From NCBI RefSeq assembly GCF_022846255.1, contig NZ_AP025682.1: a stretch of 64,000 nt of DNA. One strand, given 5' to 3'. The stretch comes from Escherichia coli. Lineage in GTDB: Bacteria > Pseudomonadota > Gammaproteobacteria > Enterobacterales > Enterobacteriaceae. The notes under the pieces are model-generated. The model did not search any database, was not told the DNA's origin, and saw only the letters and a list, made by a program, of their open reading frames with translations. Positions 2,741 to 20,371 of the stretch are shown here, one piece after another. Within the stretch, counting starts at the first letter, position 1. Every line of letters begins with the position of its first letter. Made by a program: the position numbers and the translations under genes.

Positions 2741-3400
2741 TCAGGCGTTACAGTATTTTTTTTTAATCACCACAAACAGCGTGCCCAACAAGCCAGCGGT
2801 TAACAAGGCAATTGGCAGGATCATCAGGAACGTCATTACCTGATCTTCATGGCGTTTAACGAACGGAATTATACTTAAGGCATAGCCGAAACTGGTTACC
2901 ACGCTGACCCACAGCAATCCGCTTAACCAGTTGAAAAACTGGAAGCGGCGGTTTGGCAGACCGGAAATTCCCGCCATGGTTGGCAGCAACGTACGGACAA
3001 ATGCAAGAAAACGTCCAGCCAGCAGCGCCAGCAGACCGTGGCGGTCAAACATGCAGGTGGCGCGCTGGTGATATTTAGCAGGAAGCTGTGCCAGCCAGCC
3101 TTTCACCGTTTTGGTATTCCCTAACCAGCGCCCCTGAATATAACTTAGCCAGCAGCCCAGACTTGCTGCGGCGGTCAGAATCGCAATCGTAGGCAGAAAA
3201 TCCATAACCCCCTGGGCAATCAATGCGCCAGCCAATATCAACAAGCTGTCGCCTGGCAAAAATGAGGCGGGCAGCAGGCCGTTTTCTAAAAACAGCGTGG
3301 CAAACATGACAAAGTAAACAACGCTAACAATATGAGGATCCGCCAGCGCGGCAAAGTCGTGTTGCCAGAGCGCAGCGATGATATCTTGAATAACAGCCAT
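2741..3400 (-). CDS. yghB: DedA-family inner membrane protein, 219 aa
   Basis: ORF-track protein, multi-TM hydrophobic profile, position downstream of metC as in E. coli. Confidence 0.9.
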
Positions 3401-3539
3401 GGACTTTCCTGTGGAACAGCGTTTAAGCCTTTATCTGCCTATTGTACTCCTGAATCGTCCGGGACGCCTTGATCCCGGACGCAACAATTTAAGACTTTTC
3501 ACAATAAAATGTCTGCAAAATTGTCCAAAAGTGGCAATG

Positions 3540-4727
3540 TTATACAATTCGCGCAAAACCGGCGTCCAGATCGGCAATCAGATCGTCGACATCTTCCAGA
3601 CCAATATGCAGGCGAATCAAGGTCCCGCTAAAATCGATCTCGCCTTGTGGGCGAATGGCGGCGATATGTTCTGGTTGATTTGCCAGGATCAACGATTCAT
3701 ACCCGCCCCACGAGTAGGCCATGCTGAATAAACTGAAGTTATCCAGATAGTTCGCCAGCTCTTCATCATTGAGTTTTTTCTTAAGCACAAAGGAAAATAG
3801 CCCGCTGCTGCCTGTAAAGTCTCGTTTCCAGAATTCGTATCCTTTACTGCCAGGCAGAGCAGGGTGGTTAACTCGCGCTACTTGCGGATGTTCTGCCAGC
3901 CATTCAGCCACTTTCAGACTGCTTTCATGATGTTGACGCAGGCGAACCCCCAAAGTGCGCAGGCCACGGCTGGTTATATAGGCGGTATCGGCATCGACCA
4001 TCTGGCCCATCAGATAGGCATTCTCTCGCAGCTGCTCCCAGCAACGAGCATTGCACACCGCAGTGCCAATCATCGCATCTGAATGCCCAACCAGATATTT
4101 GGTGGCGGCCTGAATGGAAACATCGATGCCAAAATCCAGCGCCTTAAACAGCACACCGGCTGCCCAGGTGTTGTCGATCATAATGATGGCATCCGGGACC
4201 ACACTGCGTACGGCGGCAACAATCGCCGGAACATCGTGGACTTCCATGGTGATGGAACCTGGCGATTCCAGAAACACGATTTTAGTGTTTGGCTGCAGAT
4301 GCTTAACGATATCGGCACCAATCAGCGGATCAAACCACGATGTCGTTACGCCCAGTTTGCTGAGGATTTTGCTACAGAAATCCTGACTCGGTTCATAGGC
4401 GGTGTTGGTCATCAACACATGATCGCCCTGTTCGACAAAAGCAAGAATGGAATTAGCAACCGCTGCCGCCCCGCAGGGAAATAGCACACAGCCTGCGCCA
4501 CCTTCCAGTTCACACATCGCTTGTTGTAAGGAGAAATGGGTTAACGTTCCACGCCGTCCATAGAACAACTCGCCATTGGCGCGATTACGTGTCGCGTGTT
4601 TTTTGGCTTCTACACTGTCAAAGACCAGCGAAGACGCGCGCTGAATCACGCTATTTACCGCACCGAGCGTGTATTTTTTGCTGCGTCCTGCATTCACCAG
4701 TTGAGTATCAAGCTTTTTGTCCGCCAT
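3540..4727 (-). CDS. metC: Cystathionine beta-lyase (PLP-dependent), 395 aa
   Basis: ORF-track 440 aa trimmed to [15 protein letters not shown] start; Cys/Met-metabolism PLP enzyme family. Confidence 0.92.
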
Positions 4728-8833: not shown

Positions 8834-8989
8834 GACCTCTCCTTTCCACCATTCAATTTCGAAACAATGTTTCTAGTTTAGCGATTCGCCAGCGCGTATC
8901 CCGTAGTCTGGCTCACAGAGTGACGAAAAACTGGGCAAAAACACGCGCTTATGCTTTGCTTAAAAAAACACCAGTTGAGGAGTGCAACG

Positions 8990-9877
8990 ATGCCGCGTTT
9001 AACCGCCAAAGATTTCCCACAAGAGTTGCTGGATTACTACGACTATTACGCTCACGGGAAAATCTCGAAACGTGAGTTCCTCAACCTTGCGGCGAAGTAT
9101 GCAGTGGGCGGGATGACGGCATTAGCGCTGTTTGATTTGCTCAAGCCAAATTATGCGCTGGCGACTCAGGTAGAGTTTACCGACCCGGAAATTGTTGCAG
9201 AGTACATCACGTATCCCTCGCCAAATGGTCACGGCGAGGTACGGGGTTATCTGGTGAAGCCCGCAAAAATGAGCGGTAAAACGCCAGCCGTGGTAGTGGT
9301 GCATGAGAATCGAGGGCTGAATCCGTATATCGAAGATGTGACGCGGCGAGTGGCGAAGGAAGGGTACATCGCCCTGGCGCCAGACGGTTTAAGCTCAGTA
9401 GGTGGCTATCCTGGTAACGATGATAAAGGCCGCGAACTGCAACAGCAGGTTGATCCAACCAAACTGATGAATGATTTCTTTGCCGCAATTGAGTTTATGC
9501 AACGCTATCCGCAAGCGACAGGCAAAGTGGGTATTAGCGGATTTTGCTATGGCGGGGGCGTATCGAACGCGGCAGCAGTCGCGTATCCGGAACTGGCCTG
9601 CGCGGTGCCGTTTTATGGGCGTCAGGCACCCACTGCCGATGTGGCGAAGATTGAAGCGCCTTTACTGCTCCACTACGCTGAACTGGATAGCCGAATCAAC
9701 GAGGGCTGGCCCGCTTACGAGGCGGCGTTGAAAGCCAATAATAAGGTCTATGAGGCGTATATATATCCGGGGGTTAATCACGGATTCCATAATGATTCCA
9801 CGCCCCGTTATGACAAATCTGCCGCCGATCTTGCCTGGCAAAGGACGTTGAAATGGTTCGATAAATATCTCTCCTGA
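8990..9877 (+). CDS. yghX: Dienelactone-hydrolase-family protein, apparently intact, 295 aa
   Basis: Start chosen at MPRLTAKDF with GAGGAG RBS 9 nt upstream; alpha/beta-hydrolase-like G-x-C/S-x-G (GFCYGG). Confidence 0.75.
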   Translation: MPRLTAKDFPQELLDYYDYYAHGKISKREFLNLAAKYAVGGMTALALFDLLKPNYALATQVEFTDPEIVAEYITYPSPNGHGEVRGYLVKPAKMSGKTPAVVVVHENRGLNPYIEDVTRRVAKEGYIALAPDGLSSVGGYPGNDDKGRELQQQVDPTKLMNDFFAAIEFMQRYPQATGKVGISGFCYGGGVSNAAAVAYPELACAVPFYGRQAPTADVAKIEAPLLLHYAELDSRINEGWPAYEAALKANNKVYEAYIYPGVNHGFHNDSTPRYDKSAADLAWQRTLKWFDKYLS

Positions 9878-9958
9878 TGGGTTTATCTCTTACAGGATTA
9901 CGTCTTAAACAAGCATGAAAAAATAGCGTGCGCAAATGTCGTTCTTTGCCTAAAATAT

Positions 9959-9982
9959 CGCTATATATGACAATATATAGCG
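9959..9982. promoter_or_regulatory. Perfect palindrome upstream of yghW (candidate operator overlapping a -10-like TATATA)
   Basis: cgctatatat-gaca-atatatagcg, 10-bp arms with 4-bp spacer, 14-37 bp upstream of the yghW ATG. Confidence 0.45.
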
Positions 9983-9995
9983 AATGAGGTGAACG

Positions 9996-10283
9996 ATGAA
10001 TAACCATTTTGGTAAAGGCTTAATGGCGGGATTAAAAGCAACGCATGCCGACAGTGCGGTTAATGTGACAAAATTCTGTGCCGATTATAAACGCGGTTTT
10101 GTATTAGGCTACTCACACCGGATGTACGAAAAGACCGGAGATCGCCAGCTTAGCGCCTGGGAAGCGGGTATTCTGACGCGCCGTTATGGACTGGATAAAG
10201 AGATGGTAATGGATTTCTTTCGTGAGAATAATTCCTGTTCTACGTTGCGCTTTTTTATGGCCGGTTATCGCCTAGAAAATTGA
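9996..10283 (+). CDS. yghW: Small protein of unknown function (DUF2623-like), 95 aa
   Basis: ORF-track protein; position upstream of hybO as in E. coli. Confidence 0.8.
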
Positions 10284-10471
10284 TCAAACATACGTATTAT
10301 CTTGCTTTAATTAATTACACTAATGCTTCTTCCCTTCGTTTTAGTGCCCCGCCGCAGTATCATGATATCGATAACCATAATAAATGTGTGGTAAATGGCG
10401 CATCGATCGCATTATTGATTTTGCGATTGAGGCAAAATATATGCCAGGTCTTCGCAACGGAATAACTATAA

Positions 10472-20095: not shown

Positions 20096-20130
20096 CCCCG
20101 TACTGATTATGAAGAATAATCAGTACGGGG
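20096..20130. terminator. Strong hairpin terminator after gss
   Basis: 15-bp perfect stem ccccgtactgattat / ataatcagtacgggg, 5-nt loop. Confidence 0.65.
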
Positions 20131-20371
20131 ATTAATCAAAATATTCAATATTTATATATTTCAATATTTATTCATTTCATATATGAATATATTAACAAGT
20201 GAAATACCTGTGTTTTGATTATTTCTAAAGGTTTTGAATGAAGGCTTATTGTCTGATACACAAGAAATAACACGCTTTTTATCGTTAAAAAATGATATTT
20301 CACTTTGCCCACGCCGTGAAAGTCACTGATAATGCCTCCGTTCGTAAATTCAAAATGGCGTAATCTAATAT

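Follow-up and report, generated by a model that had tools for sequence, protein, structure and literature searches.

What does a long perfect palindrome do directly upstream of the start codon of yghW, and which protein recognizes it? We examined this question in a 64-kb stretch of DNA (the window), which belongs to Escherichia coli with 98–99.8% identity to RefSeq genomes. The RefSeq annotation lists yghX, yghW and hybO at the locus. The first of these genes (8951–9877) codes for a 'YghX family hydrolase' of the dienelactone-hydrolase type; it is intact here, with an ORF of 308 aa, and a frameshifted pseudogene in K-12.

The original prediction, made from the sequence alone, described a perfect palindrome of 24 bp with 10-bp arms. 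The sequence cgctatatat-gaca-atatatagcg was confirmed exactly at 9959–9982 of the window. However, the complementarity continues for one more base on each side, so that the arms are really 11 nt long (TCGCTATATAT at 9958–9968 and ATATATAGCGA at 9973–9983) and enclose the 4-nt spacer GACA. The whole palindrome (9958–9983) is located 13–38 nt upstream of the yghW ATG (9996).

We found six perfect inverted repeats with arms of at least 11 nt and a spacer of at most 8 nt in the window, against 0.15 expected from dinucleotide-preserving shuffles. Because of this excess, the palindrome is non-random, yet its length alone does not make it unique. The longest perfect inverted repeat of the window is found at 20096–20130, with 15-nt arms (CCCCGTACTGATTAT and ATAATCAGTACGGGG) and a 5-nt spacer.

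The ModE box and the yghW promoter

ModE is a homodimeric, molybdate-dependent regulator, and binding of molybdate raises its affinity for DNA. Its known effects are repression of modABC and activation of moaA, dmsA and napF. The modE gene (b0761) is annotated in E. coli K-12. The lead to ModE as the regulator was given by the presence of yghW in the molybdate iModulon of Salmonella Typhimurium, which has seven genes, namely modABC, STM0770/1, STM3142 and yghW.

Rodionov et al. (2004), citing Studholme and Pau (2003), gave the E. coli ModE consensus as ATCGNTATATA-[N6]-TATATANCGAT. The sequence ATCGCTATATA-TGACAA-TATATAGCGAA at 9957–9984 matches 19 of the 20 specified positions and has one mismatch. 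It is the sole match with three or fewer mismatches within the 64-kb window, and 100 shuffles gave none. The next ModE-like match (20148–20175) has five mismatches, is AT-rich and lies about 10 kb away. The palindrome is therefore the core of a ModE box, and its perfect inner T/A pair is incidental for ModE recognition. The original prediction of an operator for a dimeric regulator agrees with this match to the site of a homodimer, but the functional unit is the 28-bp box with an N6 centre and not the 24-bp palindrome. No regulator had been named; here it is ModE. The features of the locus are collected in Table 1.

Table 1. Features of the yghW upstream region, with positions in the window.
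Feature	Position	Strand	Basis or remark
−35-like hexamer TTGCCT, predicted sigma-70 promoter of yghW	9946–9951	+	Shimada 2014 prediction mapped on the sequence
28-bp ModE box (operator) ATCGCTATATA-TGACAA-TATATAGCGAA	9957–9984	.	Consensus match and conservation in 80/80 loci
Left ModE half-site ATCGCTATATA	9957–9967	.	Position 5, the consensus N: C, T or A depending on species
Perfect palindrome, 11-nt arms, GACA spacer	9958–9983	.	Inverted-repeat scan
Candidate −10 elements within the box	9962–9974	+	TATATA 9962–9967, TATATG 9964–9969, GACAAT 9969–9974
Central N6 of the box, TGACAA	9968–9973	.	Variable within E. coli: TGGCGA in some strains
Right ModE half-site TATATAGCGAA	9974–9984	.	Final base differs from consensus T
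Shine-Dalgarno GAGG of yghW	9986–9989	+	Sequence; aligned orthologues share a G-rich block here
yghW CDS, 95 aa, DUF2623	9996–10283	+	ORF; PF11115, E = 5.5e-53; RefSeq annotation

As a positive control, the ModE-consensus scan was repeated on the promoter regions of MG1655. ModE boxes were found at modA (GTCGTTATATTGTCGCCTACATAACGTT, four mismatches), moaA (four) and dmsA (three), so that the genome search for the half-site suggested with the original prediction recovers ModE targets. The yghW box, with its single mismatch, is nearer to the consensus than these boxes (three to four mismatches) and is the most consensus-like ModE box among the sites compared.

The modABC operator of E. coli is similar to the yghW site in several respects. 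Both boxes are 28-bp dyads of the same half-site type separated by N6, both are placed right before the ribosome-binding site, ending 17 nt (modA) and 11 nt (yghW) ahead of the ATG, and in both the left half-site yields a TATA-type −10 hexamer (TATATT at modA). In addition, modABC and yghW expression shift in the same way in published data. The two differ in their fit to the consensus and in their products, since modABC encodes the molybdate transporter whereas the yghW product has no assigned function.

ModE acts as an activator at moaA and dmsA. These sites share the half-site motif with yghW, but their boxes end 174 nt (moaA) and 72 nt (dmsA) before the start, whereas the yghW box overlaps the core promoter. 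The boxes of Zur, Fur and NikR resemble the yghW site in a general way: a dimeric metal-loaded repressor there occupies an AT-rich dyad that covers the core promoter of a gene induced by starvation. However, their half-sites have another sequence and spacing, and the Zur and Fur consensus sequences of Rodionov et al. (2004) mismatch the yghW site.

A yghW promoter, TTGCCT-17-GACAAT, has been predicted from RNA-polymerase SELEX (Shimada et al. 2014). Its −10 hexamer sits on the centre of the palindrome, in accord with the overlap with a −10 element that had been proposed at the outset. A perfect TATAAT, supplied by the left half-site, was found at box positions 8–13 in 70 of the 80 yghW loci compared below; TATATG (Table 1) is the counterpart of this TATAAT of other genera and of TATATT at modA. 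In E. coli strains with the central TGGCGA, GACAAT is lost and TATATA/TATATG of the half-site is retained. These comparative data favour a −10 element other than GACAAT, and the assignment in E. coli between TATATA/TATATG and GACAAT is ambiguous. Most species have only a weak −35 element. An RpoS SELEX peak assigned to the interval between yghW and yghZ was considered and discarded, as it maps near gpr and not at the yghW promoter when the estimated offset between coordinate versions is applied.

Judged from its sequence and position, the palindrome is very probably a ModE operator built into the core promoter of yghW, where ModE-molybdate would repress the gene and release it when molybdate becomes scarce. 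When molybdate is sufficient, ModE-molybdate would occupy both half-sites, which are 6 bp apart, and would cover the −10 region and the likely transcription start; RNA polymerase would thus be excluded and yghW repressed. When molybdate is scarce, ModE would come off and yghW would be expressed alongside the modABC transporter genes. Both the direction of this control and the exact start site are what we infer, and repression seems most likely because the box overlaps the −10 region with a modA-like geometry. Either −10 assignment would put the −10 element and the start under ModE, which argues for repression with molybdate and de-repression on starvation.

Conservation of the box and its genomic contexts

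We compared 80 loci encoding YghW relatives, one per species. They cover Escherichia, Citrobacter, Salmonella, Klebsiella, Raoultella, Kluyvera, Kosakonia, Enterobacter, Lelliottia and other genera, out to Serratia with about 50% protein identity. The original prediction had named a lack of conservation in related species as evidence against an operator; the ModE box was found directly upstream of the ribosome-binding site in all 80 orthologous loci. The neighbouring intergenic DNA of these loci, unlike the box, cannot be aligned between genera. The cross-species consensus of the box is ATCGCTATATAAT..ATTATATAGCGAT. The fit to the ModE consensus is perfect in 49 loci and has one mismatch in 18, and no locus has more than three. 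The distance from the end of the box to the yghW start codon is 10–23 nt in 79 of the 80 loci and 73 nt in the remaining one. This exception is Enterobacter sp. JUb54 (L057, 2900–3002), where an insertion of about 60 nt appears to separate the box from the Shine-Dalgarno sequence.

The information content was calculated over an alignment of 80 distinct promoters. The specified positions of the box, 20 in all, averaged 1.83 bits, whereas the 60 nt upstream had 0.45 bits and the downstream flank about 0.5 bits. The consensus-N positions 5 and 24 had 1.23 and 0.68 bits, and this is the only arm position that varies substantially. The central N6 had 1.20 bits, which is more than ModE alone needs; its conservation is probably due to the overlap with the −10 element and the discriminator.

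Within E. coli, a 601-bp query around the palindrome (window 9700–10300) was matched in 5423 of 5426 complete genomes, and the 81-bp promoter segment was present in 5418 of 5426. The variants inspected were changed only in the central N6 (TGACAA to TGGCGA), with both half-sites intact. The O157:H7 strain ATCC 43889 (NZ_CP015853.1; L086, 1586–1627) is the sole genome, of 5419 matching, with less than 80% of the 81-bp query covered. It lacks about 78 bp between the yghX stop codon and yghW, equivalent to about 9894–9971 of the window; the −35 region and the left ModE half-site are gone, and the gap between yghX and yghW is 40 nt.

Two further elements upstream of the box are also conserved. The AAATAGCG(C) element at 9918–9929, about 18–27 nt upstream of the box, is found in Escherichia, Klebsiella, Kluyvera, Raoultella and others, and the A-run immediately 5' of the box is found in most Enterobacteriaceae. 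They might be an UP-element or spacer feature, another protein site, or the tail of a minus-strand terminator.

The box is kept even where the surroundings of the gene differ. In Serratia, the yghW homologue keeps it among unrelated neighbours (a nitroreductase-like ORF, a LysR-type regulator and an Xre/cupin regulator), and the hyb operon is not nearby. A contig of Enterobacter asburiae (NZ_JAKCMV010000041.1; L079, 2264–3772) encodes a DUF2623 homologue of 49% identity whose ModE box is perfect. The same cluster contains a DUF1543 gene (2313–2816) with its own ModE box 22 nt upstream (2264–2291, two mismatches), and a convergent di-TOBE protein of 143 aa on the minus strand (3341–3772; PF03459, E = 2.7e-35). 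The TOBE domains of this protein have the fold of the Mop/molbindin molybdate-binding proteins. From its gene content and boxes, the cluster resembles a small island that responds to molybdate. The proximity of the homologue to both the di-TOBE protein and a second ModE box strengthens the connection of DUF2623 with molybdate.

A ModE-like box was also observed at the Lelliottia nimipressuralis locus (L034, 5246–5400). This box, ATCGTTATATAATTCTGTGCATAACGAA, has three mismatches and lies 17 nt upstream of an ORF that begins MNNRFWQAVTFSLLILLPLSSEA...ITDQIGRTVTVP, carries a signal peptide, resembles a periplasmic substrate-binding protein and runs past the end of the locus.

Expression data and published ModE control

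Besides the iModulon, two published data sets show yghW and genes of modABC shifting together. StdEF lowers modABC and yghW together in Salmonella, and in an array of an E. coli sigma-70 mutant, modA was down 2.28-fold and yghW 13-fold. The expression data are consistent with co-regulation of yghW and modABC but are indirect evidence for it. Sequence match, deep conservation, modA-like geometry and this published co-expression are the basis on which the ModE operator is put forward here.

ModE control of the locus has been described before. Judging from its title and the papers that cite it, Kurata et al. 2013 (J Bacteriol 195:4496) places the yghW/morA locus under direct ModE control and reports physical binding of ModE-molybdate there; subsequent publications refer to it for yghW/morA as an antisense overlapping pair. 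Our analysis concerns the same locus and the same regulator. The name morA does not occur in the annotation of NC_000913.3. Kurata and co-workers reportedly used genomic SELEX and reporter assays to arrive at nine ModE-controlled operons, and are said to have described two new promoters, one for morA and one for morB, 'on antisense strands of yghW and torY'. Their reported emphasis was on the morA promoter opposite yghW, whereas ours is on yghW and on conservation across species.

We also looked in the window and in the K-12 locus for another ModE box, suited to a morA promoter within yghW or downstream of it, and found none at six or fewer mismatches. Because no other box exists in either at this threshold, except the distant match at 20148–20175, the palindrome must be the site concerned in the published ModE control. 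The primary target of ModE at the locus could be the antisense transcript morA, or morA and yghW both.

On the minus strand, an ORF of 77 aa (9774–10007) reaches from within the opening codons of yghW over the palindrome to the region opposite the 3' end of yghX. Inside this ORF, an AGGAG motif complementary to the yghX stop region precedes an in-frame ATT codon, from which a peptide of about 30 aa would be made. A short peptide with an unusual start codon has been published as 'morA', and the peptide predicted here may or may not be related to it.

Since ModE control of the locus has already been published and ModE boxes are well described, the present finding is correct but ordinary.

Alternative explanations and the meaning for YghW

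The palindrome could also act as RNA, namely as a hairpin in the yghW 5' UTR that influences how stable the mRNA is or how well it is translated. Folding of the plus-strand RNA gives an 11-bp stem (−13.7 kcal/mol, z = −5.1) only 2 nt from the Shine-Dalgarno sequence, but any perfect palindrome folds stably by default, and an Rfam search gave no match. The variable arm position is more informative. Among 50 distinct boxes, the combinations at positions 5/24 were C/G 21, C/A 14, T/G 5, T/A 3 and others; only 25 of the 50 are Watson-Crick pairs, with C-A and T-G among the unpaired combinations, and there is no covariation between the arms (Fisher p = 1.0). This independent variation is what is expected of two protein half-sites and not of a selected RNA stem, and it therefore argues against the hairpin. 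Moreover, base identity is conserved and not pairing alone, and with the probable −10 elements inside the box, transcripts probably begin within or after it. We consider a functional hairpin very improbable. The same is true, to the same degree, of an intrinsic terminator on the minus strand (hairpin plus TATTTT) that would end a transcript antisense to yghW, such as morA. A permissive scan does call such a terminator, with 11 pairs and the tail TATTTTAGGC, the plus-strand A-run just upstream of the box is widely conserved, and an antisense gene has been reported at the locus. However, only 3 of the 11 pairs are G-C, the T-run is interrupted, Serratia has kept the box without the A-run, and no minus-strand gene is annotated upstream. 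The lack of covariation applies here as well, and a terminator would leave the base-by-base match to the ModE consensus unaccounted for.

Autoregulation, in which YghW itself would bind the palindrome, is less probable still. The gene and the palindrome travel together into differing genomic contexts, as autoregulated cassettes do, but the same motif is found at the ModE targets modA, moaA and dmsA. A confident AlphaFold model of YghW built from 34 orthologues (pLDDT 87.6) predicts a six-helix bundle with no recognizable DNA-binding fold and no significant relative among solved structures (Foldseek against PDB, best E = 1.8); a profile search of PDB sequences gave no match, and Pfam gives DUF2623 only. 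We rejected autoregulation on the absence of a DNA-binding or other significant relative in the Foldseek and PDB profile searches. The least probable explanation of all is an AT-rich palindrome that arose by chance from TATA-type promoter sequence and has no regulator. It is true that (TA)n runs are self-complementary and that the window has further perfect inverted repeats. However, the G/C-containing ends of the box (ATCG...CGAT) are invariant or nearly so over 80 species while the flanks are unconstrained, and the shuffles contained no consensus match; the conservation data and the shuffles together exclude a chance origin.

With the palindrome read as a ModE operator, a striking sequence feature is explained and yghW is assigned to the molybdate-starvation response, which is of value for annotation. 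Published yghW phenotypes concern solvent tolerance and membrane lipids, and molybdenum has so far been left out of their interpretation. All 80 loci have the box, its fit to the consensus exceeds that of the modA operator, and in one lineage it is kept beside a Mop/TOBE protein; this gives a handle on the uncharacterised DUF2623. YghW is a deeply conserved protein that is probably induced by molybdate starvation, and although its function is unassigned, yghW appears to be a core molybdate-starvation gene. A further suggestion, which we offer tentatively and to which we give somewhat less than an even chance, is that YghW is an ancient core member of the ModE regulon across Enterobacterales and a protein dedicated to molybdate starvation, which would act directly in molybdenum homeostasis or in the sparing of molybdoenzymes; the box might then also drive or gate both strands, that is, yghW and morA.
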